Shown here: in pieces, positions 5,318 to 60,712 of the stretch
Layout: each line of letters starts with the position of its first letter
Position numbering within the stretch: the stretch's first letter is position 1
Source: Microthyrium microscopicum
Lineage: Eukaryota
DNA length: 64,000 bases
NCBI GenBank assembly: GCA_010405405.1
Contig: MU004242.1
Location: 407,751-471,750, forward strand
Direction of reading: 5' to 3'
The notes under the pieces: model-generated
The model's input: only the letters and a program-made list of their open reading frames with translations
Database searches by the model: none
What the model was told of the DNA's origin: nothing
Made by a program: the position numbers and the translations under genes

Positions 5318-5802
5318 AGATGAATAGAACCTAGCTTTCGGACCAGCTGTCTTTGCAACTGTTGCTCATTCTCCTTCCAAGTGTATGTCTAGATTCCTTC
5401 ACGGAGGACGGATGTTATGTAGTCATTCTGACATTGCTAACTTCTTTGCCTTGAGCCTTCTGAGGTTGTTGTATAGCCCAGTAGATTGGAGATTTCGCTC
5501 GGTAAAGAGAGAAGCAATACCGCCTCAAAGAAGAGACGTTACTGTTGAGAAGAGATATGAACCTCAAGACGAGAAACCACACCCTATTGGAGCCCACCTT
5601 TTAATCTCGGCAGCCATCGTCGCCTAGGACTTCGCACTCGCACTTTTAGGCTCGAACACAATTTGACTCTGCTTTACACACTTTTAGCATCATCGAAGCT
5701 TGAAAAACTTCTTCCATATTCGACACCCTCGCCAAAATATTTCGAGCTATGTCTTCCGCTGATGGCGAGGATTCCGAGCTCTCGTTCGCCGATTGGATAG
5801 AC

Positions 5803-7024
5803 ATGGCGAATTTATCACTTAGCAACAGTCCTGCAAGCGTCAGCAAAGATCTCAGCGTCGATTCAATCGATCCACGGCGTTGCTATCTTCAAAAAGTCCC
5901 CCCAGAAATCCGTCTGGAGATTTTCCGTTATTTGCTGGTTGCACCGCCCGGTTATTACATCCATGAGCTCCTGAGTGAGTCTTCTTGGACAAAACCGGAT
6001 CCCGAAGAACATCACAACACCGATCGAGTTCCAAATCTCATCGTCTACCACCCAACAAACAAAAACTGGATGTATGATAAAGAATACCCAGTTTGTCGCA
6101 AAATTTATGGCCGACCCATCAATGAGGTTGGTCAACCGTTCGAGTTGTATCCTCAAATTCTCGCCACATGCAAATTGTTCAATAGCGAAGCTCAATACAT
6201 GTTGTTCAGTTGCAACACATTCAGCCTAGCAAACCCAGGTATACGTCTCTACAGAACCTGGCGCGTCCCGTTTGATTTGGCAGAGGTGCAATACAACAAA
6301 TCATGGACCATCAAATCCTTACGCTTAGATTTCAAATTCGGAGGTTCGCAATTTGAGCGTCGGGACTTTTGGGCTTATATCGACAAGTTCTTCCCGAACG
6401 TTTCGCAAATAACTGGCATCATCTCCTTAGAAGATGTACATGTACGTTGCATCATGCCGGAATGGCTATACTGCCTCGCACGACATATGCAAACACACGC
6501 ATCTCCAAAACGATTGGAGTGCTTGATCTACGACACGGGACTATTCAGCATGACGACACGAGAAACGGATCGTCATACGTACGAATGCAGCCTTAACAGC
6601 ATGTATGTTATTTCTCCTAAAGAAGCAATCCCACGCATAGAGTTCAATGTCTGCCAGTGGGAACTAGTCTTCAATTTCATTGCTAATAGGCGTTCATAGG
6701 TATGCACAGCCCAGAGTCTCTCAAGGCGATATTGCTGGGCCTTCGGAAAGTGAGCTAAATGCCACCTTGCACCCTCACGTTCCCAGCTTTGTTGGGCATC
6801 GCCTGATCATGAAGCGGATGAAGGATCTCTTTTATGACAACGGGTATTTTCAACGCAATAACAACTGCTGGCAATGGGAGTTTGAGATCATCACTTCGTT
6901 TCGCTATCCTTCATGTCCTCAGATCATCGTCAAGATGATTTACAACCGTAATCCTGGAAATACAGTACTGTGTAGAGTGACGGGCGACTTTGGCAACATG
7001 ACGCGAGCCGAAGTTCTGGACTAG
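5803..7024 (+). CDS. Tandem F-box-like family copy 3 (2 exons; alternative start 5749)
   Basis: CYLQKVPPEIRLEIFRYLL and LYPQILATCKLFNSEA...NTF. Phase-2 intron 6603-6699 (GTATGT...GCTAAT...TAG) joins to exon ending FQRNNNCWQWEF...VLCRVTGDFGNMTRAEVLD*. Confidence 0.82.
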
Positions 7025-7565
7025 ACGGCTTCAGGCCAGGAATGCCGTTTATATATGAGATACCTACCTAGGTACTTGTATAGATACCAATGCAAAAGAC
7101 ATCATGTCATCAGCCGACCGAATGATAGTACATGTCCTGTATGATTCCAAAGATGTTCTTTCTATCCTTGAGGCTTTTCTATTGCATATAACACACAACG
7201 AACGCAGATTCCTGGAACATAGTAGGAGGATGAAGATTCCGGAAAGAGCTCCGGAGGGTATGGAGGGACTCGATATTTGGAAGGAGCGCCGGGAATCTTG
7301 TGCATCAAGAATGTCAGGAGCCTTTGATACATGGAGAAAGCACGACTCACAACTAATTTTCAACCTCACACTTTGAACTCAGATGCTTTCACTTTTATCG
7401 TTTAGCTCGTTCATGCTGTAGCCTAGAGAGACTTAAACCCCTCTCACAGCCTACTCTTTTTATTTGTTCCTCTTCTCGCTCCTTATAACTTCCACCCCTA
7501 CTCGCTATCACAACCCATAACCTTAAACTCTTCACCATTGCGCTATCGTATGACCCAACAAAAAG

Positions 7566-8597
7566 ATGGCATCTTCAACTACTCGAGCCTCTGAAGGCGA
7601 GAACAAAGATAGCAGCGTGTCTCAGAGTCAGCGTCCATGCCATCTACAACAAATCCCTCCTGAACTTCGCCTCGAAATCTACAGTCACCTCTTGATTGCT
7701 CCAGCAGATTACTATATTGATAGTATTGCGACTGAGGAGGGAATTTCACAACTAGCTGACGTCTATCGGCCGCTCACCCTTACAGCCGAGGAGCCAGATT
7801 ATGGCCATAATGTCAGTCGACTAGCAAGCAACTGGACGCGGAAAAGAACGTTTGTCTTGTATCCTCAGATTCTTGCCACTTGCCGGCTCTTCTACGCCGA
7901 AGCTCGCAATGTTCTTCTTACCAGCAATACTTTCCAGCTAAGAACCTTGGTCGAAGTGCTAAATGAGACCGGCCGCTTGACGTTCACTAAAATGCCTCGA
8001 AAACTATTTTCCGAGATCCGATCTTTACAGGTAAAGCTCGGATTTAATCTGATCTCTACGCAAAGTTTCTGGCATCGTATCAACCATTTCTTTCCTGCTG
8101 TCACCACCATTACTGCATTTATGGACGTAATGCGGAGCCCACAACAAGAGGATTTTGAACAGGTACTCGACTTTTTCGCGCAACAGGCGGCAACACATCC
8201 TTCTTTGGCACACTGCGAGTGCGTGATGTATGACGATCACAAGTTTGGTCCTGAATGGGTTTACACAGGCTCTGAAGAGCTCATTTCCTCCACTGAACCT
8301 AGAGTACCCGACCATTTTGAATGGCATCGACATAAAATGAACGCCATGCGAGATGTGTTTCGTGCTGGTAATGTCTTTCAAGGGCATGAGAACTGCTGGG
8401 AATGGCAGTTCGAGATCGTGACCTCTTTCGAAAGTCCACATTATCCTCTGAAACTGGTCAGAATGATCTATGACAAAAAGAAGATGAAGTACGACGAAGA
8501 GCTGAAGAAGAAGGTGTACTGCAAGAATGCTACAAGCACTGTGTTGTGCACAATCAAGGGGGACTACGGCAACATGTCGCGCATCGAGGAGCTGTGA
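7566..8597 (+). CDS. Tandem F-box-like family copy 4 (intronless, 343 aa)
   Basis: CHLQQIPPELRLEIYSHLL, LYPQILATCRLFYAEA...NTF, FQGHENCWEWQF...VLCTIKGDYGNMSRIEEL*. Confidence 0.85.
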   Translation: MASSTTRASEGENKDSSVSQSQRPCHLQQIPPELRLEIYSHLLIAPADYYIDSIATEEGISQLADVYRPLTLTAEEPDYGHNVSRLASNWTRKRTFVLYPQILATCRLFYAEARNVLLTSNTFQLRTLVEVLNETGRLTFTKMPRKLFSEIRSLQVKLGFNLISTQSFWHRINHFFPAVTTITAFMDVMRSPQQEDFEQVLDFFAQQAATHPSLAHCECVMYDDHKFGPEWVYTGSEELISSTEPRVPDHFEWHRHKMNAMRDVFRAGNVFQGHENCWEWQFEIVTSFESPHYPLKLVRMIYDKKKMKYDEELKKKVYCKNATSTVLCTIKGDYGNMSRIEEL

Positions 8598-9407
8598 TAC
8601 GACTGGAATCCCGGCAAATTCATTGGCATCAGTTTCGAAAATCAAGAGCATGGGACTTTCAGGCTGAATGAGCGTTCGGTAACAAAGCTAGGCCAATAGA
8701 ACGCCAACGTGTGGTACTCAGGCTAGCTTTGCGGCGACACATGGCCGCTCAGATTTCAGGTTGAAGGTTGCCTCCCCAAGTGAGAGCGAGATGACATCAA
8801 AAAGGTTTGGAGTAATGAATGAGGACGGGCCCGAATTTTGAAGACTGCTTTTGCTTCACCTGCTGTGTACAAATATTGACGAGGGAAACGATGGGGGGAA
8901 AACCGGCAAACTTGTATTCTCGTTCAGCATAGCCGTGGATCAATCAGTAATAAACGCTTGGCTATATCATCTTTTAGTGAAGGGCGCTTTTCTCCGACAA
9001 GATGCTTGTGAAAGAAGCTGTAGCTGCTCTACACAGTCGAATACGATATATGTCTATGCTGAAAAACAAATCAATGCCTTCATAAGGAGCAGATGGCACA
9101 AAGCTATAGTTCAATGACCTCGGCCGGCATGCAACCTCATCTGCCAATGTCTTGCAAAGAGGTTGTTGATTGAGCCACCTCCATACGCATCTGTAACCAC
9201 CCGCCTAATCGCAACCTTGGTGAATTCGCCTTATCGCTTCACTGCCATGAGAAGCGAGGTCTTCTTGAATGCTCGAGCGCTTTGCGACCAAGTTCTCTTC
9301 TTTGCAACATTTCCATCCCTTTACCCGCCTGTTCATTCCTACATATGCGCACCCGGCTCTCCGATTTCTTGCTTTGTCGTGCCATCGGCTTACAAACAGA
9401 TCGCCAA

Positions 9408-10637
9408 ATGAACAACGCAACTTCTCAAACCTTATTGCAAACAATGGTGCAACAGCAAGACCATCAAACTTCCAACCAGCCAACATGCTATCTGAAGGCA
9501 CTTCCTTACGAGACACGCCATCAGATCTTTCGAAATCTCCTTAAACTTCCCCCAAATTGCTATATAAAGAGTATTGGTTTCTATATAGAGAGCCTCGGTA
9601 TCAAAGTTCATGGTACACCAGATCCATCGTACACCATCGTTCTTCCTACACGATTGAGTGAACGATCTGAAGGAATCTATCAAAAGAACTATGGATCTGG
9701 CCTCAACAACAGCTTTGTCGGTAAATGCAAGCTGAATCTTGGCATTATCCACACCTGCCGCGACTTCTACTTTGAGGGTGTCGAAATCCTTCACGGCATG
9801 AATATTTACGAAATCAAACAATTATATAAAGAACATCCCGGTTCAAAATACCTGCCGACGATGCTCCAGCTGCCTTCCTACACCGCCATCACATCACTTC
9901 ATTGCGAATCAATCTCCTTCATTCGCTCGAAAACTTTTGGATATTGGTGCACAATCAACTCCCGGCTCTCAGGTCGATATATGGCGTAAGTGGCGAAAGC
10001 CACACGTCATTCCACCTAAATCACTCATTCATAGGACCCTTTCAATCCGCAGGATGGTGGAAAGAAATGGTCCTCGGTATTGAGAAACATCCCTCTTTGG
10101 AGATATTTCAATGCTGGACCGAAGATCAAGGGGTATACTATCCTGCTACATGGCCAGAGGACCCTGACTGGCGCTATAGATATAGATCTTGGTAAATTCA
10201 TTGCCTCTTGCATCAGCAATCTTCGTTTACCTGTCTTGCAAAGCGAGACCCCCTTTGAGCCGCCTGAAAATAGAAAACGTTAGACGGCATGTAGCTGATT
10301 GCCTTTTAGGACCGCATCCATGTCGAACAAACCCATCTTCGTCCGCCACGAAAGACAGAAGAAAGGGTATTTACGAGCCATTCCCGTTCCAGACAACTTC
10401 CTTCCGCACAGAATCGCATTGAAAGCTGTGAGAGATGCTTTTCGCGAGGTTGGAGTATTTCAAGGTGAGGAGAAGTGTTGGGAATGGCAGTTTCAGTCGA
10501 TTTCTGTATTTGACCATGACCCTCGTGCTCGCGTTGGGTTCATCTACAAGAAGAATCCCCGCAAAGAGGTATTATGCGAGGTCATTGGCGACTATGGACA
10601 GCTTTCGCGTATGGATAAGTTAGATAGATCGTCCTGA
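9408..10637 (+). pseudogene. Tandem F-box-like family copy 5 (2 exons; apparent 1-nt deletion frameshift near 9902)
   Basis: CYLKALPYETRHQIFRNLL... reads to TAITSLH, then continues as LRINLLHSLENFW in another frame (CATTGCGA where CAT TTG CGA is expected). Phase-2 intron 10192-10309; last exon FQGEEKCWEWQF...VLCEVIGDYGQLSRMDKLDRSS*. Confidence 0.72.
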
Positions 10638-36914: not shown

Positions 36915-39038
36915 ATGTCTGGTGTACTGTCGCTATCTCTCCTCCTTGCTTCATCGCTTGGAATCTTTCAGACCCCCGCTGCCTCGAGGCTACCACACAT
37001 CGTAGAAACTTTCCAAAAGCGCGCTGGCGCAACACCAGTAGCGATCGTTGGCGTGCAGAATGGCGAAGTTCAGACTCGAATGGAGTTCAGTGACTTGCTC
37101 AACCAGCAGCCTGCCCAATTCAATATCATGATGCTTGGCCTTGCGCGCATGATGAAATTAAACCAGACAGATCAGCTATCATACTTTAGAATTGCTGGTG
37201 AATATATCGTGCCAATCATACCAAAGCTTCATTACTGACCTGATCTCAAGGTATTCATGGGGTTCCATTGGACAACTGGAATGGTGTTGTTGGCGCCAAC
37301 GATATCAATCGCCCAGGCTGGTGTACTCATACGTCGAACCTATTTCTTCCCTGGCACCGACCATATCTAGCACTATACGAGCAGACTCTATCTCAAAATG
37401 CTATGGCAGCTGCCTTAGAATGGCCGCCCGGTGCTGAACGGGATGCTTTTGTGACAGCAGCGGATCAACTTCGACTACCATACTGGGATTGGGCCAAATC
37501 GCCGGCATCTGGACAAGATGTCACTCCAGCCATCATGGTATCGCCGCAAGTACAGGTTTTGACTCCTAATGGTACTCAAACAATTGACAATCCGCTTTAC
37601 TCCTATAAATTTGGCTATGCGGATCAAGATCTGCGATTCCAGCCCGTTAGTCTACACCCACTGATTTTTTGTTGTTCGATATTTAGATGCTCATGACTGA
37701 CGGATATCTCGATTAGTACGTTTATTGGAACGAGACGAAGCGATGGCCCACCACAATGGATTCAACTGCTGAAACGCAGATCGGCACTTTGGTCCAACAA
37801 ATGAATCTGAACCAGGCCCAAGTGAAGCAGCGGTTATACAACTTGTTTACAGGCAATTCCAATTTCACAGAAGTCAGCAATGAAGCGTGGGTTGCAAACG
37901 CTGGCCCTGGCTCTTATGATAGCTTTGAAAGTATTCATGATCAGATCCATGGGACAATTGGAGGAGGGAATTATGGCGATATGACGGTCATTCCTTTGAG
38001 TGCATTCGACCCTGCATTCTGGTTTCATCATGCGTAAGTACCAAGAAGAAATTTCATGTGTGATTCTGACAGTCTTAGTATGATTGATCGTTCTTTTGCA
38101 ATGTGGCAGGTGCTGTATCCGGACAGTTACGTGGAACCAATGCCGCAAGCCCTAAGTAACCAGTGGTATGTGAAAGGAGAGGTATTGGATGCTACCACTG
38201 GTAAGCAACCGACTATAAGTATCATTTCTACACTGCTAATGAATCGGCAGGCCTGCAGCCTTTCTTCTCCGATCCCACTCAAAGGATATTCTGGACGTCT
38301 GATACTGTGCGTAACACATCGACATTCGGATACAACTACCCAGAAACTCAGAACCCCGACCCCACCGCCGTTCGAGCAGCCATAAATAAGCTCTACGGAC
38401 CTACCAAGAGAACGAAAACGCGAGGACGACCCACAAAGAGCAAACGTGCAAATGCTTATGGAGCAGACCCAGCACCTGCGCAAACAACCCAAACTCCAAC
38501 TGAAAGGCTCTACCAAATCAGCTACCGAGCACCCAAGAACAGTCTAGGCTCGTCTTTCTACATCGACATGTTCATGGGAAATCCCGCCTCCGAAGACCCA
38601 CACTCATGGCGAAATGATCCTAATCTTCTAGGCTCGCAGGCCGTGGTATCCATGTCATTGCCTGGTGCTGCACCAGTGACAGTCACCGGCGTTCTTCCGC
38701 TAAACAAACATTTACAAGACATGGTTACAGCAGGCCAACTGGCTGATCTAAGCGAAGCCAGTGTCGTGCCTCTGTTACAGGATAACATATCCTGGAGAAT
38801 TAGAATGGCAAGTCCAACCTACCACTCCCCACTCCAGATAGCATACTAACGTCATTAGGGCGACTACTCTGATATTCCAGCAGCCAACGTCCCGAATCTG
38901 CTAGTCTCCCTAGCCAGCATTGAAGTCGAGCCTGCAACGAGCCCAGACGCATTCCCAACTCATGTCGGCGACTGGACGGTGTATACTAGTGTGACAGCGG
39001 ACAAGGTTGGCGGCCTGAAGGTTGAGCAGCAGATATAG
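36915..39038 (+). CDS. Secreted tyrosinase (type-3 copper oxidase) with C-terminal shielding domain, 6 exons
   Basis: Exons 36915-37197, 37251-37645, 37717-38033, 38079-38200, 38251-38807, 38859-39038. Signal peptide and KR site; IAGIHG, CTHTSNLFLPWHRPYL, LRLPYWDWA, HDQIHG, FDPAFWFHHAMIDR. Last intron is GC-AG. Confidence 0.92.
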
Positions 39039-39916: not shown

Positions 39917-41619
39917 TCACGACTTCTTTGAAGATTTCAGATGAAGTTTCTATTTGAAATGTCGATGGGTTAAGCACCCAGATCGTTGGACCAAAAGGCA
40001 TGTCTACTCTTTCTAAGATTGTCCGCCGTGTCGTTCAAGAGAATGATTCGGCGTTTGTTGCAGTAGGCTGTTTTGTCCATCATTTCGACTTTCATCTTTT
40101 CAAGTTGATCCGTAGGCTTCTCGAATAATTCACTCAGGTTCTCAACCGCCATCTCGAGATCTTTTTGATTGTCCTCGAAGATTTCCGTAAGGTTGTTGCG
40201 CTCGAGATAGAAGGCAAAAGCATAGGTCCACTTGAGTGTTTGTCGGCATCGTTGCAAGGCCTTACTGGCACTATCCAGGAATTGAACTTCAATCCAGCTC
40301 AACTGGGCATGATTCTGTAATTGCGTCATCTTTTTCTCGGTCTTGACATAGATATCCTTGTCCAATTTAGCACTTTGCTCGTGGTTTGCGTAGCGGTTGT
40401 AGTAATGTAGATATCGTTCCAAAGATTGGCGGGATTTTGCTTGCGCATCCCGTGCCTCCGTTCCGCTCTTCTCTTCAAATCTGTTGCAGTTGTACCAGCT
40501 AGTGCCGTGTTCAGACCAGACGCCCATACACATCCAGCAAAACTCGTGTTTACACTTTCGACACGTCATGTGGTTACAACCTCCGTTCTTTTCGATTGTA
40601 GAGGCGCATTTGGGGCATTCTTTAGTGTTGGCCGATATCCAATTCGCAGTTTCCGAGTCGTCTTCACACTTCTTGACCCATTTTTTCACCAAGTCACAAG
40701 GGGCCGGGAGATGATCGTTGTAGGCGCATCCAAAGCAAAAATCATGTCCACAGTCGCAATGAACTGTTGGCACAACTTTTTTCAACTCCTTGGCTTTGAC
40801 TTTGCATTGTATGGCAAATTCGCAGTTTGGGGCGGGGCACCATTTGAGGTTTTCGAGATCATCGACGTACGTTCGGACAAGCAGTTCGTGGTATCTAATC
40901 TATTAGCAAGGCAGTGGGACGACATCATGATTGTCAACGTACCGATCAGTTAAATTGTCAGGAACCAAGAGTTCCATAGACTTGTTGTCCACGATACGAT
41001 TGCATTGATCAGCTGGGCACTTGATTCGCGCAGCCTCAGCCTCGTCCGTAACCTTGGCATTAACATAGGTCTTGTAACAGTCAATGCAAAATCGGTGACC
41101 ACATTTGATGGCAAAAGTCGTCATTGGTGAAGTATCGTCACAGCAGATGTCACACGTGAACCCTGTGAGGGTTTGAACCCGGGCTTCTGTTGAGTTTGAT
41201 TCTCCTAAACCAGCTCCTTCTAAAACTGCGGCCTGATTGTCCATGTATTGTTCGATCAGCTTTTCGCGATTCCATCGAGAATAGCGCAGCAGGATTGCCG
41301 TTGCCTCTGGCGATTGACCAAGCACATCTTTGACTTCATTGATGAGGCGTAACTGGGCTTCGTCAATATCTTTTGGGGTCCAGACTTTGAACTCGACTTC
41401 GTAAGATTGTTTCTGTGTGGCGGTAATCTTATCGTGGGCGTCAAAGCCTTCCTCTTCTCCTATTTCCAGGTCGTCAAAGTCTAGGGCCAGTTAGTCAAGG
41501 GAACAAAGAAAAGGAACAATGAGAGGCAACGCACCATCATCGCTGTATCCGCTCTCGACATCATCCATCATCTCATCATCGGTAGATCGGGCGCTGTTGA
41601 AGTCATCTTCGGACTCCAT
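39917..41619 (-). CDS. Ariadne-type RBR E3 ubiquitin ligase (ARIH1/Hel1-like); 3' end uncertain
   Basis: Introns 41534-41481 and 40942-40895. RING1 CDICC..CGHRFCIDC, IBR WCPAPNC..CDCGHDFCFGC..HLPAPC, RING2 CPKC..IEKNGGCNHMTCRKCKHEFCWMC, Ariadne domain RYLHYYNRY..LKWTYAFAFY. A final intron with weak GTAGAC donor is assumed; otherwise the stop is at 39970. Confidence 0.92.
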
Positions 41620-44600: not shown

Positions 44601-46395
44601 GTCGACTTAAAATTGATTTGGCACTGCTAAGCTTCACTGCCGTTCGATCCGTAGTCGTCACGGAACTCCCCCAGATTATTTTCAGCAGATCATTTCAATA
44701 TATATCGAAGCAAAGTGGACTTTAACTGAACTTGGCTTTCTCTTGGCTGTTTTAAGGTTTATTTCCGGGCATCCGAGGTGCATGGGATCATTTTATTTTG
44801 ACGTCGTTGGTCTTTTTCCTGCTGTGGAATCATCTGAATTGGAGGTGTTTTAGGACAGTAAAGTCGCAAATTGAAGACAAATCTTGTCGGACAAGCCAAT
44901 GTTCTTACTTGGAAATATAGTAAATGTCAACTTTTGGTTGAAAAGCCACGTTAGCATGCTCGAATGTAGGAAAGATCGTACCGCACGGATGCTTGAAGAC
45001 AAGCATAACGTAAGAATTGCTTGCGAATACACATGGAGGAATGACGTTTCTGTAGACCTAATGTCAAACTCACGGTTTCAAAGAAACAACCTCATTGGCA
45101 CAGCTAGTAGTGTATATTCCTAACTAACAGAATTGACCCTTCGTGAACACAGTCTTGGGAAGTGTCTACCGAACCATTGTTCTAAATCCGTAGATAGGTT
45201 TGCTCTTACCAGGTACGAGGCAAAAATCAAAGCTCCAAAAACGTGAAGAGTCTACATAAGTGTGCTAAGCGAAGTATGTTGTCTTCTGGCCGCTACCACT
45301 CTGGCACTCCCAGTGACTGATTGCTATGATGTCCATTGAAAGTCTATACACTAAATGAAATTATCCAATGCGACAAGATTGCTAGAATTTCTCTGCTCGG
45401 CAAGGACAATAGCGGATATTTTCCTCGATGGGAACTTTCCATATTATTTGCCACCTATTACACGCTGCTCCGCCAGAAATTTGCAGCGGCTGATACTTCA
45501 TACTATATTATTGTTAAGAGACCGGGAAAATCAAACAGTCGTTTTCATATCTTGCGATTGACAAGTTGTCCCAAAATAGCCAATCCATAAGGGCCAATGA
45601 TTAATGCTGCTCGCTCCCAGTCATAATGATATATTCGGATCAATGTGAATGTCATGTCAGTGCCCCGAACCAGTGACGGGTACGAAATATAGAGCAGTTG
45701 GGATATTTCCTCAAATCACAAAGAACATTGCAGTATTCTAGTGAAACGATTTCTCCAGTCCAATACTTCTTTCAGGGGTTGTTCCCTTCACAGGGCTATC
45801 AATAGTTACGAAGTCTCCGGCCATTGCCCCGGTAAACGGAGTTCTGGTACCTTTCCTCTGGTAATTTTAGTGAAGATCACGGACAATAACCGACTATCGA
45901 TATTGAAGTATATTGGACTATGAAAACGTGGTGTTCGTGGTCCTCGCGATCGTTACTTTTTCGGTATCAGCTCAAATTGTACGCAGCATTGTACACAAGT
46001 AAATCGTAAAGATTGCGAATTTGAAGAGATGTTATGCTAGTCTATAACGCAGTGATTTTGGGAGAAAGAGCAGAAGATCAACAGTATGAAAGCCAGGTGT
46101 TTATCGAATTTCGTCTCACGCATATTGAGATTGTAGTTTGATAGTGAGCCGGGGGGACCATTACCCTCCCCCGTCTAGCCTGTCCTAATAAAAATTAGAC
46201 AACGGAGAAACTATATTGATCTTGAAAGCTTCATTCTGCTATTCTGTGGATCCAGACTCCTGTTCTGTAGACTCAATTCTGTATAAGAAGAACCATCTCC
46301 TCGACGTAAGTTCTCGTTCTTCATCCAGCTCAATTCAATCTTCTCTACAGTCACTACTACAGTTTCAATAACTTCCATTCTTTTCAAAATTCAAA

Positions 46396-47154
46396 ATGTT
46401 GTTCACCCAGACCATCCTCGCTGTTCTCAGCTTCGGCGCTCTCGCCATGGCCGCTCCTCAACGCGGTGAAATCCGCCAGGGACACCAGGTTAGTTCTTCT
46501 CCATTCCGTTAGTCTGGTGGGCTTTGATGATCGCAAATCACCACTCAGTGGTGCTTTGACAGAATCTGGCCGCTATAACGTACGACTTTACGAACTTATA
46601 CTAACATGCAACAGGACATCCGATCGTAATTATAGTTTCATTCCGAACATGAACTGAACACTAACAAAGCTTAGCGGACGTCAAGAAGTGCGCCAGGGAC
46701 ACCAGGGTAATTCCTTTCCAATCCAATCGATTACTTAGACACTAACATTTGCCAGATATCCGTCAGGGACACCAGTAAATTTCTCCTCTCTTCCTCATAA
46801 TACAAGACTCTAACACCTTCAAGGGATATCAACAACGGTCAATACCGACAAGGACACCAAGATTTGCGCCAGGGACACCAGGACGTCCGCAGCGGACGTC
46901 AAGGTAATTCAACCCCTTCCCTTAGTGGTTGGGTGATATGTTGAATCAGCTGGGAAGGTGCCCAGTCTTCTGGGTGATCTTACCAGTAGAACATTTTTCA
47001 CTCATCACCACTCTACTTTATCAGAACATCGCACTAACAAACGGCTCAGAAATCCGACAGGGACACCAGGAGGTCCGACAGTGAGCAAAACGATCACCTT
47101 TCCATTGAACATACACTAACGAAAATCAGGGGCCGCAACAACCGCGGATACTAG
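46396..47154 (+). CDS. Small secreted heptad-repeat protein, 96 aa, 7 exons (absent from the ORF track)
   Basis: Exons 46396-46488, 46615-46625, 46675-46706, 46756-46774, 46824-46903, 47050-47080, 47130-47154; all six introns GT...CTAAC...AG; total 291 nt in frame. Product: MLFTQTILAVLSFGALAMAAPQRG-EIRQGHQ-DIRSGRQ-EVRQGHQ-DIRQGHQ-DINNGQ-YRQGHQ-DLRQGHQ-DVRSGRQ-EIRQGHQ-EVRQGRN-NRGY*. Start context CAAAATG. Confidence 0.88.
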
Positions 47155-49314
47155 AGACTTCTCTAGATATGCCCAATATCTTGCTCCGGAGAGGGAGGAG
47201 AGCTTCACTTCATAAAACACCGTGTTACGGCTTTGTCATATAACTTTTGAAATATAAAACTTTGGTCTAAAACTATTTTTTCTTTTGCAGTGTTTGTGAT
47301 TGGATGATACATTTGCAACAGCGACGAAGCCTTTTCTGAGGATATAGTCCTTAGTATTACATTGCATGTCTTTCTTCGTGTACTCATCTAAAGAAACCAA
47401 CGAGGCGAGCGATTTGCAAAGATTGGAGACCCAAAAGCAAGTAAGAGGAGTCAACCAGGTGACAATATAGATAGCGCGCTCTGCATCAACTTTGATGTTT
47501 CCACTCGCACTTCTTAAGCAAAAAATACTTTGGTTCCCGCCACAATCGATGTGTAATCAAATGTTGTATGCATCGAGTGGGAAATGGATTATCTATTATT
47601 GAAACGTAGCAGATGGTAGAAGTCATATATGATACCTGACGGGAGCGTGCCACATACTCTGCGATGGAAGCTTTTTGCTTTGATAATTCAAGGGGTTAGA
47701 ACGCAATAAATATCTGATGGCCTTCACACAGTGCGGAGGAGGTAGGGTGCTAGGCCAAAACGAGCAGTTCACTAGCCGCTTTTAGAGTTAGCCTGATCTC
47801 TGAGCCAATCAAATCTCCTCGCAAAAGCTCCAGCCTAATGGCAAACAACCATGACAAAATAAATGGCGCGCTCCCATCAACTGCGGTGCCTCCCACCGCA
47901 CTCTACAACGAAAATGCTTTTAGAATGCTTTGAAAATCAGTCAGGATCATTCGATAAAAAATCGGTTCCATGTATTTAGGGGGAAATAAGTACTTGATTC
48001 CAACCAGTAAAGCGTAGCAGATGGTAGCCACCTCACTTACGGGGAGCGCGCCGTATGTTTCTCGATTGGTACGCGGAGTAATTGCGCTTCCAAATTTCCT
48101 TATGCCTATATCCCGTCTATTCTCCATTCTGAAGTCTGCGGCTACTGTCCATTAGCTGATCTATCAAATTTCATCCCCAAAGTAACCAAAATTACACAAA
48201 TAAAGGCGAGTGCGCAAGGTGACTGCAACTCAAAACCATCTTTAAAAGTAGATAAATAGCGAGACCTTAGGGAATGGGCATTTTTTCCGAAGACAATCGT
48301 TTATCATATGCGTAAATTGTTTCTAAATGTGATGGGACAACTTTTATAAGAAAGCAATGATCCCTATTCTCTATTGTAGCAACAGGTTCTCCCAACCTGC
48401 AGGTTCGATAAACAGGTTCGATAAACATTGATCTTTTCAATAACTCTGTGAGATAGAATAATACTCAAAACCAGAACGTTCGGGGCAGTGGATAGAAGCG
48501 CACAATTGAACAATTCCAACATTTGTGGTCAGTCGAACGTCCCAGAAGTTGATGCTGGATGAAACGCGTGGAAACTTTGAACTTCAGATTTCCAGACATT
48601 AGATTTTTATGCCATAGAACCACGATGCCCAGAAGATTCTGGAATCCGATCCAGAGAGACACTGAGCATGTTTTCATGCACGTTTTCTCGACCGCTTCTC
48701 TTTCCGCATATTTGGTCTAGCCTTTACCACTTACCAGGTGTTCGACACAACCGTCCGATCCAGCAAGATGATCGCATGGTGCTGGCGCATATGCGTTGAA
48801 ACACGCGAGATTTTTTGGTAATGGAAACCACTCCAGTGGTCAAAATGTCATGGTTTCGCCATGCACACTCCACGTTCCGAGCCGCCTCCCCATCTTTTTC
48901 TTTACTTTCCTATGAGGGGAAATTGGTGGGATTTGGACCCTTGCTGGTGGTTTGGGTTCAAGGTGAGCGGAATTGAGGGAGTTTTTGACTAAAGTGTGCA
49001 ACATCTGCATGCCAACCCACAACCCCTGTGCATATCGCGTGCCAGTCGACCCAGTCGTTGGGAGACGATCCAATGATAAAAACTCTTTTCATCAGTCGAA
49101 TGTAGCGATGTCAACAAAAGTTCTTGGCTGTGGTCTAGAAAACGCCATGGACGCAGTATGCTTAAGCGGACTTTGCGTCTACTGGCCTGACTTTGAGCAG
49201 CATGGAGAAGGTTTTGAATCTGACTGGAAATGGGATGAGGGACTCTCGTTTGCTATTTGTATATAGACTGGAGACATGAGAACATCTCTGCTCTTTTTCT
49301 TTTCAACCATCAAA

Positions 49315-51442
49315 ATGAAGTTTCAAATTTCCGTCCTCTTGGCGCAAGCCTTCATTGTGCCCTCACTGGGCATGACTTCTGCTGGTCGCCGCGGTCATGG
49401 CCTCGTTGGATACGGAATATCAATGTACAGACCAGTCTGTGCCTTTGCTTGTCGCGATATTCTTAGTTCCGCAACACTCAATTGTACCATGGCAGCAGAG
49501 AGTATGCCGGGAATGAGTATGGATATGGGCGAGGCGACAACGGACCCATCGTGCTATGCCACTGATGATTCATTCCTACAAACTCTGGCATATTGCATAT
49601 CCACTCGGTGCCAAAAGGAAAGTGTACCCATCTGGAAGATCGAGAAATGGTGGCAGTTGAATGTCGCTGGAATAGCAGCTCAGCAACCAGATCCGAAGGA
49701 ATCATATCAACAAGCTCTTGAAAAGGTTTCCACACCACCGACTGAAGTCCATATGCAAGGCGATCCGCTTAACAAGACTAGCTTGACAGACGATACGGAC
49801 TACCTAACCTCCTGGAATGCAGACTGGGCCTTTCCTATTCTTGACAAAAGATCAGAGACTTTCGGGTAAGTTTGTTGATAGGCATTGTGTGTGCTGTACT
49901 GACAGTTATAGACTGGTTATCATGCTCTCAGGAGTTGCCTTTCCGATCGGATTCTCCCTTCTTCGTTTCCTGCCTTTCCCTGCGCTATGGTGGTCCAAGT
50001 TAAACTCCTGGGTCATTGATCCTCCTCTCATCGGCAACAAGCACAGCACTCCAGTACTCTGGAATCTGTTCTTGATGCCTACTCGAGGTCAGGCACTTCT
50101 CATCGGCTATTTCACACTCATCAACATCGTCTTCGCCAGCGCTGGTATCTTTGCAATCCAGCCCAACTCATGGAATCCAGGTGACAATTATGGATGGCTA
50201 CTTACCATCATTTCTGATCGCATGGGGGTTCTGAGCTTCGCCAACCTTCCTCTAGTCTTCCTATATGCTGGAAGAAACAACTTCCTGCTGTGGATAACCA
50301 ACTGGTCTCACTCGACCTTTATGCTTCTTCATAGATACCTTGCAGTTCTCGCCATGCTCCAAGCCGTCCTCCACTCGATTCTCTGGCTTCGACTCGACTC
50401 ACACAGCGGTGGTCTCCTGGCTGAGCAACGAGAGCCGTACTGGTATTGGGGCGCAATAGGCACACTCGGCCTTGCAATTCTCATTCCCACCTCCATCCTA
50501 CCTCTTCGCCGCAAATTCTACGAGCTCTTCTTAGCATGGCACGTAGCCATCTCCATTCTCGTCGTCGCTGGTTCCTACTGGCACATCGTCTTCCGCTTCG
50601 AGCATCAATGGGGCTATGAAGTCTGGATGTTCATAGTCATGGCAATCTGGGCCTTTGACCGGATCCTACGCTTCCTCCGTCTAGCACGCAACGGCATCAA
50701 GTATGCCCACATTACCATCATTGACGACGACTATGTACGCGTGACTGTCGATGGTGTAGCTGGCAATGGACACGCATACTTGTACTTCCCCACGTTGACA
50801 TGGCGCGTATGGGAAAACCATCCATTCTCCGTGGCCTCAACCACGCTACCCGTCGCATCACATGCACGCGTGAAAAGCGTAGAGCAGGACATTGAAAAAC
50901 ACCCAGATGTCAACACTACGCGCCTTTCCGACTCGATCGAATCGTCTTCAACACATAGCGCACATGGCTCACACAAGACAGCGCTCACCTTCCTACTGCG
51001 CACCCAATCTGGGCTGACGCGCCATCTGCGCGCCAAAGGCGGCTCCATCCCTGTTCTCGTCGAAAGCGGCTATGGCTCCCATCCAGATCTCAGCGAATAT
51101 GCCACACTCATCGCAATTGCAGGAGGCGTTGGCATCACCGCAATCTTGCCTCTCGTACGTGCTCACACAGGCCGGACAAAGCTATACTGGGGCGCGCGCA
51201 CACAAGCACTTATTGATGACTTTGCTGGCCCATTGGCACATGTGTCGAAGGAGACATTTGTAGGCAAGCGGATGGTGATTGCGGATGTTTTGGAGCAGGA
51301 ATTACGCGGTGAGACGGAGCGCGTTGTGGTTGTTGTTTCTGGACCTCATGGTATGGCAGATGAAGTGCGAGATGTGGTGTGTAAATTGGGAAGGACAGAA
51401 CGGGTTGCTGTACAGTTGCTTGAAGAGTCTTTCAGCTGGTAA
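49315..51442 (+). CDS. Ferric/cupric-chelate reductase (FRE family), 2 exons
   Basis: Intron 49866-49911. Signal peptide, Cys-rich extracellular domain with ESMPGMSMDMG, heme-ligand His in LLHRY/VLHS/AWHV/YWHI, FAD motif ENHPFS, NADPH motif IAGGVGIT, terminal EESFSW. Confidence 0.93.
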
Positions 51443-51808: not shown

Positions 51809-51892
51809 CTATTTTCCGCAGTTATCGCAAGAGCATGATCCAGAAGCGCAGTTGCAGCTTCCCTTGTTTCCTGAGCATCCGCAGTCTGCCAT
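51809..51892 (-). CDS. Copper metallothionein, 27 aa (Neurospora CMT-type)
   Basis: Reverse strand reads MADCGCSGNKGSCNCASGSCSCDNCGK* (7 Cys: CxC, CxC, CxCxxC). Start context CACAATGG; TATA-like CTATATAAG at 52026-52018. Below the ORF-track length cutoff. Confidence 0.93.
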   Translation of the reverse strand: MADCGCSGNKGSCNCASGSCSCDNCGK

Positions 51893-57754: not shown

Positions 57755-59204
57755 ATGGTGGAACCTTTCCAGGACGACCAGCGACGCTCGTTATTGTCGA
57801 CTTTCATGAAAAAGGCTGATGTTTACCATGGAAAGGTTCCAGGATTGAACAAGATTCCATTCAGATCTGTAGCGATAATTGTTTTTATTGCCATTATCAA
57901 TTTGATAGTCTGGGCGGGCTGTGGCGTTGTACTGGTATGCATATCATGAAGGGCATAGCCTAGAGTATACCATATTACTGACGAAATGGCCTACGTATAG
58001 AGCTTTCACAGGTATATACATCTTATTTTCGACAGCTGAACTCTTTCTAAGTTGGAGAGACTCCTAGTGCCTACGGCTGTACTGGCATACACACTGGGAC
58101 TTAGACATGCACTGGACGCAGACCACATATCCGCGATTGACTTAATGACCCGACGTCTGGTTGCTGATGGAAAAGAACCTGTGACAGTTGGAACATGGTT
58201 TTCACTTGGTCATTCGACGTAAGCTCAACTGAATTTCAGCAAAAGAGGCTGGACCTGGTGCTAACAGGAGTCAGAATTGTAATCATCACATCAATTGTTG
58301 TTGCTGCAACAGCTCAAGCAGTATCAAAGAAATTTGATGGCTTTTCGCGCGTGGGAGGCATTGTTGGAACTTCCGTGTCTGCTACTTTTCTCATTGTTCT
58401 TGGTATGATGAATATATACATCTTGTATAAACTCGTTCAGGAGATGCGACGCCAGCTTCGAGCACCACTCACTGGCGCTTTCAACCTACAGTTTCAAGGA
58501 ACTGGCTTCTTATTTGGGTTGTTGCAAAAGCTTTTCAAGCTGGTCGATAGGTGAGACTGAGCGCTGAAAATTGAACCACGAAATTAACACTAATAGACTT
58601 TGTTTGCAGGCCATGGAAAATGTATCCCATAGGCGTCCTATTCGGACTTGGATTCGACACGTCTTCAGAAATCGCACTACTTGGAATTGCTTCCATCCAA
58701 GCTGCTCAAGGAACTTCCGTCTGGGTCATTTTGATATTCCCCATCCTATTTACTGCAGCAATGTGTCTTCTAGATACCACTGATGGAGCTCTGATGATGG
58801 CAGTATATACACGGACTTCTGCAGCGCGAGATCCGATCGTTGTTTTGTATTACAGTATCGTTTTAACGGTCGTCACTGTCCTGGCTGCACTAGTCATCGG
58901 CGTGGTACAAGTCTTGTCTCTAATCATGAACATTGCTCAGCCATCAGGCCCATTCTGGGATGGCGTTGGCTTTGCAGGAGATCACTACGACATAATCGGT
59001 AAGTCGGTAAGCCCTTTCAGCATCTCAGAGAGACTAACACTCTTTGCGACAGGTGGCAGTATATGTGGTTCGTTTGTTGTTTTTGGAGGTCTTAGTACTC
59101 TGTTGTACAAACCTTGGAGGAGATGGATTGAAACTAGGAGACGACATGCTACTCCTGAACTTGGACCAATTTGGAACGATGAAGACGCGATTGTAATCGA
59201 TTGA
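57755..59204 (+). CDS. High-affinity nickel/cobalt transporter (NiCoT, Nic1-like), 6 exons
   Basis: Exons 57755-57934, 58001-58011, 58060-58218, 58275-58550, 58610-58998, 59053-59204. Signature [50 protein letters not shown]. Confidence 0.92.
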
Positions 59205-59337: not shown

Positions 59338-59704
59338 TGAGCAAACAGAAATTATTTCAAATGTGCGCGTTGAAAACAAACTGCTGGTCTGATGTTTCTT
59401 CGCTTGGGTCGAATAACCTCACTGAGCTCATTTCATGGAAACAGCTTCTGACGATGAGCAAGATTCTCGATTCTCGATTCTGACAACCATACATCACTGA
59501 GCAATATCTTTGACATTCATCGAGACATTCTGTGGGAAAAAATTCCAGATTATTTTAGAACATATCAAATCTTTCGAGCCATCAGTAATTAATTTGTTGA
59601 ACGGGACCCAACTTTCCCAATACCCACTCAATGGTTGGCTGGCTTCTCAGGCTAAGCCGACAACGCCTTCCACTGCAGCAATGAGCATAATAATAACATG
59701 CTCA
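59338..59704. promoter_or_regulatory. Cluster of Mac1/Cuf1-type copper-response elements (TGCTCA core) upstream of the Ctr gene
   Basis: TGAGCAAA 59338 (reverse complement TTTGCTCA), TGAGCAAG 59455, TGAGCAAT 59498, and an inverted pair TGAGCAT-N9-ATGCTCA at 59682-59704. Confidence 0.65.
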
Positions 59705-59832
59705 CATGCATATCCCGACTTCATCCCAACTTTCTACAACTCCTCACCTCCAAATCTTATTCATGAAATACACCTGCCTCTCGTCCTTTAATCACCATCC
59801 AATACATCAAAAATCACAGATCACAACTCACG

Positions 59833-60712
59833 ATGGACATGCCCATGCCCATGACAGCCACATCTGGCGCGATATCTGGCACAATGTCTAGAGTAATATC
59901 CATAGCCACACCTAGCAGCACACCCGCAAGCAATTCCAGTCCCATGATGGGAATGATGGGAATGTCCAACACCTTCTCCACATCAACAAAAGTCACCCTC
60001 TTCGTCACAGACTGGACCACCGACACGCCCGAAAAGTACTTTGGCACTCTCGTTGCGCTCTTCGTCATCACACTACTTAACCGCTTCCTCGGCGCCTGGC
60101 GCAGCCAGTTGGGCAGGGTATGGGCTGACAAGGCTGCGATTGCACGTCAAGAGCAACTCCATAGACGGAGGGCAAAACGACGCGCCAAGAGAGCGAAGCA
60201 AAGACACTTCAGGAGAGAGGACAAACCGAAGCTGGATATCACTACGGATTCTTGTCATTCTAGTAGAAGCGAGGAGTGGCAGGCGGAATCGGAGCCTCTT
60301 TCTCCACGCGATATAGAGAAGATTGAGGAGTATGATTCAGATTCTGGTATGTCAGATGCGGAGTTGGCGATGGAGAAGCATGTTGTAGTGCCTCTCGCAC
60401 CGGCGTGGATGTCGGTTTTCGGTGGGCGGTGGAGAGCGGGAAATCCATGGCGGTTTAGCATTGACGTTCCACGAGCATGTTTAGAAGGGTTAAGAGGGTT
60501 CATTGGGTATCTACTGTAAGTCTCTCCACGTTATATGGAAATGCATTTCCTGTTTAAAGTTGCAGTGACTGACATGAACCAGAATGCTAGCGGTAATGAC
60601 TTTCAATGTTGGTTTCTTGGGAGCAGTGTTGTTTGGTATCGTTGTAGGAGAGCTTATTCTCGGCAGATTTATTAGTGGTACTGGATGGGAAGAAGGGGGA
60701 TGTCATGACTGA
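59833..60712 (+). CDS. Ctr-family copper transporter, 2 exons
   Basis: Met-rich N-terminus (MDMPMPM, MMGMMGMSNTF), LFVTDW. Intron 60516-60582, then MxxxM motif LMLAVMTFNVG, GxxxG (GIVVG), C-terminal GCHD*. Confidence 0.92.

Follow-up and report, generated by a model that had tools for sequence, protein, structure and literature searches.

A probable micro-exon gene for a predicted intact, secreted heptad-repeat protein near copper and nickel genes in Microthyrium microscopicum

Introduction

Here, we describe a probable gene at positions 46396-47154 on the plus strand of a 64,000-nucleotide stretch of Microthyrium microscopicum DNA (GenBank assembly GCA_010405405.1, contig MU004242.1, positions 407,751 to 471,750; hereafter the window, in whose numbering all coordinates are given), in which seven short exons would be spliced into a frame for a small secreted protein made up almost wholly of seven-residue repeats. 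Our overall reading, to which we give a probability of roughly 0.6, is that this is a genuine micro-exon gene, in a filamentous ascomycete, whose product is an intact, secreted repeat protein with a possible capacity to bind Cu(II) or Ni(II). In kind the product belongs with the small secreted repeat proteins; the unusual part is the micro-exon architecture of its gene, together with the fact that no relatives were found.

Should the gene prove real, a class of secreted fungal protein is escaping both ordinary gene finders and protein databases, overlooked because it is encoded piecemeal by exons of 11-32 nt. Whether fungi handle copper or nickel with a secreted protein or peptide could, moreover, be tested cleanly and cheaply at this locus; according to one preprint, the isocyanides were the first copper-binding counterparts of siderophores to be found in fungi (bioRxiv 10.1101/2020.07.23.217810). 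Even without any link to metals, it would be a compact natural case of repeat evolution in which the introns lie inside the repeats.

A reading frame spliced from very short exons

A sequence-only reading of the window had proposed a gene of seven exons, and rebuilding it by coordinates from the window sequence recovers that model exactly: an ATG at 46396, a TAG at 47152-47154 and, between them, a spliced frame of 291 nt (96 codons and the stop) drawn from exons of 93, 11, 32, 19, 80, 31 and 25 nt, which are separated by six introns of the form GT..CTAAC..AG. Exon 1 (46396-46488) holds the start codon, a hydrophobic segment resembling a signal peptide and the first heptad. The 11-nt micro-exon that forms exon 2 (46615-46625) supplies part of a D-I-R-S unit that is completed over both its junctions, and is followed by exon 3 (46675-46706, 32 nt) and by the 19-nt micro-exon 4 (46756-46774). 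Exon 5 (46824-46903) contributes a degenerate unit, a partial unit of five residues and two full heptads; after exon 6 (47050-47080), the last exon (47130-47154) provides the C-terminal tail and the TAG stop.

All six introns, of 126, 49, 49, 49, 146 and 49 nt, start with GT and end with AG, and each contains CTAAC, with the branch A lying 10 nt from the 3' splice site in five of them and 12 nt in the other; this pentamer occurs six times in the 759 nt of the locus, compared with 0.73 per kb on the plus strand of the window. Intron 1 (46489-46614, phase 0) opens with GTTAGT and would bring in four in-frame stops if retained, introns 2 (46626-46674, phase 2), 3 (46707-46755, phase 1) and 5 (46904-47049, phase 1) open with GTAATT, intron 4 (46775-46823, phase 2) with GTAAAT, and intron 6 (47081-47129, phase 2), which carries one TTTGCTCA on the minus strand at 47082, with GTGAGC. 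As reading on in frame from the preceding exon meets one or more stops in every intron, retention of any one of them would truncate the protein. None of the five internal exons (11, 32, 19, 80 and 31 nt) is divisible by three, so skipping a single exon would break the frame; the adjacent pairs 32+19, 19+80 and 80+31 nt each sum to a multiple of three. An RNA run carrying the same species label (X1) gave no contig over 45536-47437, a blank that carries no information on expression.

Four of the introns (46626-46674, 46707-46755, 46775-46823 and 47081-47129) are each exactly 49 nt long and place the branch A exactly 10 nt before the acceptor; other introns in the window that were read from RNA joints measure 46-67 nt. 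The identical length of four introns unrelated in sequence suggests a tight optimum for intron length in the gene or the genome. An introner-like origin for them was considered and ruled out, since outside the splice signals they are just 15-30% identical.

Evidence that the spliced frame is coding

The repeat is confined to this locus and becomes regular upon splicing. In a six-frame translation of the 64-kb window, all 13 matches to R[QS]G[HR]Q or QGHQ fall within the repeat gene. Read directly from the genome, its six CARGGACACCAR motifs lie in frames 1, 2, 0, 1, 1 and 0, and its eight G-[HR]-Q cores are spread over three frames and four different 21-nt registers. After splicing, the same eight cores are all in frame 0, at spacings of 21, 21, 21, 36, 21, 21 and 21 nt, and the heptad register is preserved across all six junctions, which bears out the earlier observation that repeats are completed where exons meet. 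Tandem Repeats Finder reported no array over the locus, the repeat being hidden from it because introns interrupt the repeat units.

The differences between units also follow the proposed frame. Among the seven canonical units, the ratio of non-synonymous to synonymous variation (pN/pS) is 0.42 in this frame and rises to 1.23 and 2.05 when the frame is shifted. The two SGRQ units use different Ser codons, TCC and AGC, which cannot be interconverted by one synonymous change. GC content is 0.59 in the exons and 0.33-0.45 in the introns. Outside the splice signals the four 49-nt introns have pairwise identities of 15-30%, whereas the exon units are still similar, which implies that the exon units have been held alike while the introns drifted; the variation between units thus behaves as if it were under selection at the protein level.

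Upstream, the leader and core promoter region (46087-46395, plus strand) is free of ATG, the last upstream ATG lying at 46086 and leaving 310 nt 5' of the start without one (P ~0.003 given the ATG density of the window). It is pyrimidine-rich near the start, with 66% pyrimidine in the last 100 nt, and has A at -3 of the start codon. GC content by codon position falls in the order first, third, second, matching the neighbouring coding exons, and this is weak evidence because the repeat dominates the pattern. From these features of the sequence, we judge the micro-exon gene at 46396-47154 very probably real.

The predicted protein

The spliced frame encodes 96 residues, beginning with a signal-peptide-like N-terminus and continuing into a mature part of ~77 residues that consists nearly throughout of [DE]-[IVL]-R-[QS]-G-[HR]-Q heptads. 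The nine-residue mean hydropathy is 1.4-2.4 over residues 1-13, and on a heuristic reading an A-x-A (small residues at -3 and -1) precedes A-P at about residue 19/20, in line with the signal-peptide-like start described previously; there is no second hydrophobic stretch beyond this N-terminal segment. The mature part is 22% Gln, 18% Arg, 16% Gly and 8% His. It contains no Cys and no Lys, six His and six QGH, with an Arg every 2-12 residues, and has an isoelectric point (pI) of 11.2, a grand average of hydropathy (GRAVY) of -2.09 and a positive net charge. Its mean normalised hydropathy of 0.273 lies far on the disordered side of the boundary at 0.437. Judged on these properties, the product would be a very basic, extremely hydrophilic and probably secreted repeat protein. 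No KR, RR or KK site is present in its mature part, confirming the lack of Kex2 sites that the sequence-only reading had itself raised as a caveat, and the protein is probably uncleaved.

Eight units fit a relaxed heptad pattern, accompanied by one five-residue partial unit and one degenerate unit, so the earlier description of about ten [DE][IVL]R[QS]G[HR]Q repeats, with its six QGH and absence of Cys and Lys, is matched by count in the spliced product. The repeats cover ~70 of the 96 residues, above the 15% criterion used for the Kex2-processed repeat proteins (KEPs) discussed below. They are of two types, [DE][IVL]RQGHQ and D[IV]RSGRQ, which form two similar blocks with the degenerate and partial units between them, and the canonical units lack Tyr. 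Counted over ten units (nine full heptads and the five-residue partial), Gly-5 is invariant, Arg-3 is retained in nine units and Gln-7 in eight, and none of the nine full heptads loses its acidic or its aliphatic residue. The least conserved position is His-6, which is replaced by Arg in three of the ten units and by Gln in one.

Searches for relatives

Searches of protein libraries, Pfam, the PDB, the ESM Atlas and metagenomes, which took in no fungal genome collection, returned no relative. A 47-aa stop-to-stop open reading frame (ORF) from the exon-5 region, compared with a library of 5.8 billion clusters, drew three word-sharing candidates in the class of 84-2000 aa, none of which scored, and no candidates in the class of 25-83 aa, and the exon-1 ORF drew 41 candidates in the longer class, again with none scoring. 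A HMMER pass over 1.84 billion representatives gave three matches, none of them a relative: P0002 aligned solely to the intron-derived tail of the query, P0003 was without an aligned stretch, and P0001, a protein of 534 aa with ~25 D-V-K-T-G-H-N/Y heptads, is not secreted-looking and is otherwise unlike the product, its resemblance being taken as convergent. Pfam and PDB searches with the exon translations and their alignment profile gave no match, nor did a search of the ESM Atlas with the exon translations.

At the nucleotide level, a degenerate 36-nt pattern, present twice in exon 5 and with no matches expected in shuffled sequence, was found at 46 metagenome loci, and none of the 46 is a relative; they have 56-73% GC and a single match each, several have stops in that frame, and they look bacterial. 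Within the window, tblastn of the spliced product gave no paralogue outside the locus, all such matches having E > 1. A literature search for the QGHQ motif gave nothing relevant by title among the matches listed. Construction from micro-exons would itself account for the absence of the gene from protein databases.

The metal-gene neighbourhood

The sequence-only reading had placed the gene beside others that handle copper and nickel, and the neighbourhood proves richer than it had claimed, with a reductase, a NiCoT and a Ctr gene joined by a tyrosinase and a probable metallothionein. Pfam identifies a ferric/cupric reductase ORF at 49808-51442 on the plus strand (Ferric_reduct, FAD_binding_8 and NAD_binding_6), whose start, near 49315, lies ~2.2 kb downstream of the repeat gene on the same strand, the two thus being in tandem. 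Further on are a NicO (NiCoT) gene at 58168-59204 and a Ctr copper transporter gene at 59767-60519, both likewise identified by Pfam. Against the window, the X1 RNA contigs show no differing letters over long pieces and have GT..AG joints in the reductase, NiCoT and Ctr genes, which establishes these as real, spliced and transcribed genes of the same strain.

Just 3' of the reductase, on the minus strand, a 27-aa Cys-rich ORF (51812-51892; CxC...CxC...CxC..C), in a region covered by X1 contigs, is probably a copper metallothionein gene. In the PDB it matches a single entry, metallothionein 1t2y; all its Cys align, and the E value of 0.29 reflects the shortness of the peptide. In Pfam it has no match. 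On the other side of the repeat gene, 7.5 kb upstream, lies a tyrosinase gene (37244-38849, plus strand; central and C-terminal domains by Pfam), which encodes a copper enzyme. It is split from the repeat gene by a housekeeping gene for an Ariadne-type RBR ubiquitin ligase (39970-41490, minus strand, by Pfam) and ~4 kb without recognisable genes. The reductase and metallothionein are in turn separated from the NiCoT and Ctr genes by a 3.5-kb block (~53.0-56.5 kb) of 24-28% GC, compared with 42-52% around it, which holds only low-complexity ORFs and looks like a repeat relic degraded by repeat-induced point mutation. Four or five metal genes nearby raise the prior of a metal link for the repeat gene, and do no more than that.

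Two further features of the window were recorded. X1 RNA contigs cover 47850-48550, between the repeat gene and the reductase, with non-canonical joints (CT..AG and CA..AG) and several loose ends; this stretch contains no ORF of at least 100 aa and has no Pfam match. Possible explanations are non-coding transcription, chimeric contigs, or a reductase transcript that begins this far upstream. Far upstream, at 5704-9986 on the plus strand, three adjacent ORFs each match DUF7730 below threshold (scores of 22-27 bits, the cut-off being 27), which suggests a small tandem DUF7730 family.

Signs of copper regulation

In Aspergillus fumigatus, MacA is described, in a passage of PMC6514546, as binding 5'-TGTGCTCA-3' in Ctr promoters. 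Taking TGCTCA as a MacA-type core, we found 45 copies in the window, a density of 0.70 per kb over both strands. The 562-nt region 5' of Ctr contains five of these (59338-59699; Poisson P 6e-5), one of them as TTTGCTCA, a cluster that fits predicted control of Ctr by a Mac1/MacA-type response to copper starvation, and two lie in the 1 kb before the reductase. The corresponding 1 kb of the repeat gene has none; going upstream, the first copy comes at 2.2 kb, and one copy lies inside intron 6. The repeat gene is therefore without sign, in its promoter, of the regulation apparent for Ctr.

What the protein may do, and the alternatives

In the reading we favour, the product would enter the secretory pathway and, there being no dibasic site, would be released as an intact protein. 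It would form a basic, hydrophilic array, either disordered or folded into a small beta-roll with a period of 7 or 14 residues, conceivably of about five 14-residue turns, in which the aliphatic residue of each unit would face inward and Gly would sit at the turns. Outside the cell it would act as a multivalent repeat surface. In its most specific form, the proposal is that, like multi-His peptides, the intact protein would use its six His, placed at regular intervals, to bind Cu(II) or Ni(II) reversibly, and that this binding would act beside the functions encoded by the flanking reductase, metallothionein, NiCoT and Ctr genes. We consider this mechanism unlikely even given a real gene. Metal-independent roles (as a lineage-specific surface or cell-wall protein, an effector or a cationic antimicrobial) are collectively likelier and, taken as a group, somewhat probable; they do not make up one mechanism.

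Several points weigh against our reading, in whole or in part. For the gene itself, the support so far comes entirely from within the sequence, exons of 11 and 19 nt are demanding for any spliceosome, and the lack of a relative in protein libraries, Pfam, PDB, the ESM Atlas or the metagenome scan is what a young, non-functional open frame may also give. For metal binding, the unfavourable points are the variability of His, the positive net charge, the TGCTCA-free promoter, the lack of a divergent promoter shared with a transporter, the presence of another transcribed stretch between the gene and the reductase, and the position of NiCoT and Ctr beyond the block of low GC. For a beta-roll, they are that the exon translations match neither the beta-roll family PF21300 nor any PDB chain and that the composition points to disorder. 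An uncleaved solenoid or surface protein had been offered by the sequence-only reading as an alternative to a peptide precursor; it fits at least as well as the precursor, its uncleaved character agreeing with our own reading, and its solenoid fold is what the missing direct match to PF21300 or PDB and the disorder-like composition count against.

The rival that survives best is a lineage-specific secreted repeat protein whose role (as an effector, in the hyphal or spore wall, or as a cationic antimicrobial) is independent of metals and which lies beside metal genes by chance. We hold it somewhat unlikely as a replacement for the reading above. A signal peptide followed by imperfect hydrophilic repeats is a known architecture for repeat effectors, as a passage on the SP7-like proteins sets out (PMC11333574), and the basic product (pI 11.2), the absence of relatives in the libraries searched, the promoter lacking the motif found at Ctr, and the RBR ligase gene and ~4 kb without recognisable genes that part the repeat gene from the tyrosinase are all in its favour. 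It leaves the regular spacing of His without explanation, however, and the presence of four or five metal genes in a span of 14 kb makes some relation to them more likely a priori.

An extension in the opposite direction would make the product an extracellular scavenger or buffer of copper and nickel, a 'chalkophore protein' encoded by a micro-exon gene within a copper island to which the reductase, metallothionein, NiCoT and Ctr genes would also belong. Cu(II) or Ni(II) would be caught by the heptads that carry His, whether in the whole protein or in fragments left by monobasic cleavage, and would then be reduced and taken up; we think this improbable. A similarly low probability attaches to the suggestion that the locus is non-functional, being either an open frame that arose by chance or is decaying, or else a de novo transcript yielding no working protein. 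The failure to find relatives in the libraries searched is compatible with it, and six introns in 291 coding nt are very unusual for such a fungus. Yet the full set of signals at fixed spacing in all six introns, the restoration of the 21-nt register at each junction, the synonymous excess confined to the proposed frame, the ATG-free leader and the contrast in GC between exons and introns would be hard to obtain together without selection on the spliced product.

The weakest proposal is the one with which the sequence-only reading began, namely that the protein is a ribosomal precursor cut after each Arg to release QGHQ(D/E)(I/V/L)R-type peptides, each starting with an amino-terminal Cu(II)- and Ni(II)-binding (ATCUN) motif and serving as a metallophore for the neighbouring uptake genes. 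An ATCUN site consists of a free N-terminal amine with His at position 3, and an N-terminal Gln tends to cyclise, which removes that amine. By arithmetic, cleavage after every Arg would indeed yield six fragments starting Q-G-H, and this part of the claim stands; the cleavage itself corresponds to no known fungal processing signal, with no KR, RR or KK site available and, at each candidate site, an aliphatic P2 and an acidic P3. Pfam scanning of 81 ORFs (17 of 43 and 59 of 83 listed, plus five shorter ones, the rest being mostly shadows of longer ORFs) found no DUF3328 or other tailoring family, in agreement with the earlier failure to recognise a DUF3328 gene, although a gene in short exons, or one among the ORFs outside the scan, could escape notice. 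Despite the signal-peptide-like start and compact repeats, the flanking metal genes and the standing of ATCUN as an established high-affinity site for copper and nickel (PMC13753722), we set the precursor aside as very improbable, given also the promoter without a MacA-type motif, the cyclising Gln and a His that is replaced in four of ten units while Gly, Arg and Gln are kept, the opposite of what an X-X-His chelator predicts.

Comparison with known systems

Among known systems, the product calls to mind the KEPs, such as the alpha-pheromone and ustiloxin-type precursors, which are likewise small and have near-identical short repeats filling most of the mature chain behind a signal peptide, here a putative one. 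A passage of PMC6339444 defines KEPs by KR, RR or KK sites lying between three or more repeats. Having none of these sites, the repeat protein fails the definition, and its repeats also lack the Tyr or Cys used in known cross-links. In the dikaritin (ustiloxin-type) clusters, a DUF3328 (UstYa-like) gene lies beside the precursor, a tyrosinase-type oxidase belongs to the cluster and the core peptide contains Tyr. Here no DUF3328 gene was found in the 81 ORFs scanned, a tyrosinase lies 7.5 kb upstream with the RBR ligase between, and the canonical units have no Tyr.

In gene architecture, the closest parallel is with the micro-exon genes (MEGs) of schistosomes, for which a passage of PMC10526429 gives exons of 3-81 bp, secreted products and introns of up to 5 kbp. 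Both combine a secreted product (predicted here) with very short exons, the internal exons of the repeat gene being 11-80 nt. They differ in that its introns are 49-146 nt rather than long, in phylum and in having no sequence likeness. Schistosome MEG exons are, moreover, mostly symmetric, that is multiples of three, which permits exon skipping, whereas not one of the five internal exons of the repeat gene is. In filamentous fungi, functional microexons are said, in a passage of a 2024 paper, not to have been described before (PMC11121469), and the locus, if the chalkophore view is true, would be the first micro-exon gene for a secreted repeat protein described in a filamentous fungus.

In domain layout, the product resembles the SP7-like effectors, where a signal peptide also precedes imperfect hydrophilic repeats. 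The passage cited above (PMC11333574) describes these as having 6-11 hydrophilic imperfect repeats behind the signal peptide and one conserved intron, and as Glomeromycotina-specific, with longer units and often a nuclear localisation signal; they showed no sequence similarity to the repeat protein in any search.

A likeness to seven-residue beta-rolls arises by way of P0001. Its heptads (residues ~118-300) match the Pfam grass antifreeze beta-roll PF21300 (E 9.4e-8, 32.5 bits against a cut-off of 30), and in the PDB it matches 7o23, a construct of a trimeric autotransporter adhesin head, and weakly 3ult, an ice-recrystallisation-inhibition protein (E 0.13). The repeat in the 3ult alignment has the pattern aliphatic-x-S-G, spaced like the [IVL]-R-[SQ]-G of the repeat protein, so that a heptad period and an aliphatic-x-x-Gly core are shared; P0001 itself may be either a translated minisatellite or a real beta-roll. 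The exon-5 and exon-1 translations gave no match to PF21300 at E values up to 10, and the outward-facing residues of the repeat protein would differ in being charged and bulky.

For a possible metal-binding function, there are two models. The first is provided by multi-His and ATCUN copper peptides, such as histatin-5 and the prion octarepeats, which the product resembles as a cationic array of short Gly/His repeats, of a kind that can bind Cu(II) via imidazoles and backbone amides. It differs from them in having a variable His and no free X-X-His N-terminus unless it is cleaved, for which it has no site. The second is the zincophore Pra1/Aspf2, with its linked transporter Zrt1/ZrfC. According to a passage of PMC3386192, PRA1 and ZRT1 share a common upstream intergenic region and are co-regulated. 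The repeat gene differs in lying in tandem, 2.2 kb from the reductase, without a divergent promoter or Ctr-type motif, and in encoding a protein of no Pfam family. The likeness is that of a secreted protein encoded beside metal-uptake genes, and Pra1/Aspf2 would thus be the functional model for the repeat protein if it binds copper or nickel, a chalkophore protein being, if true, the copper counterpart of the Pra1 zincophore.

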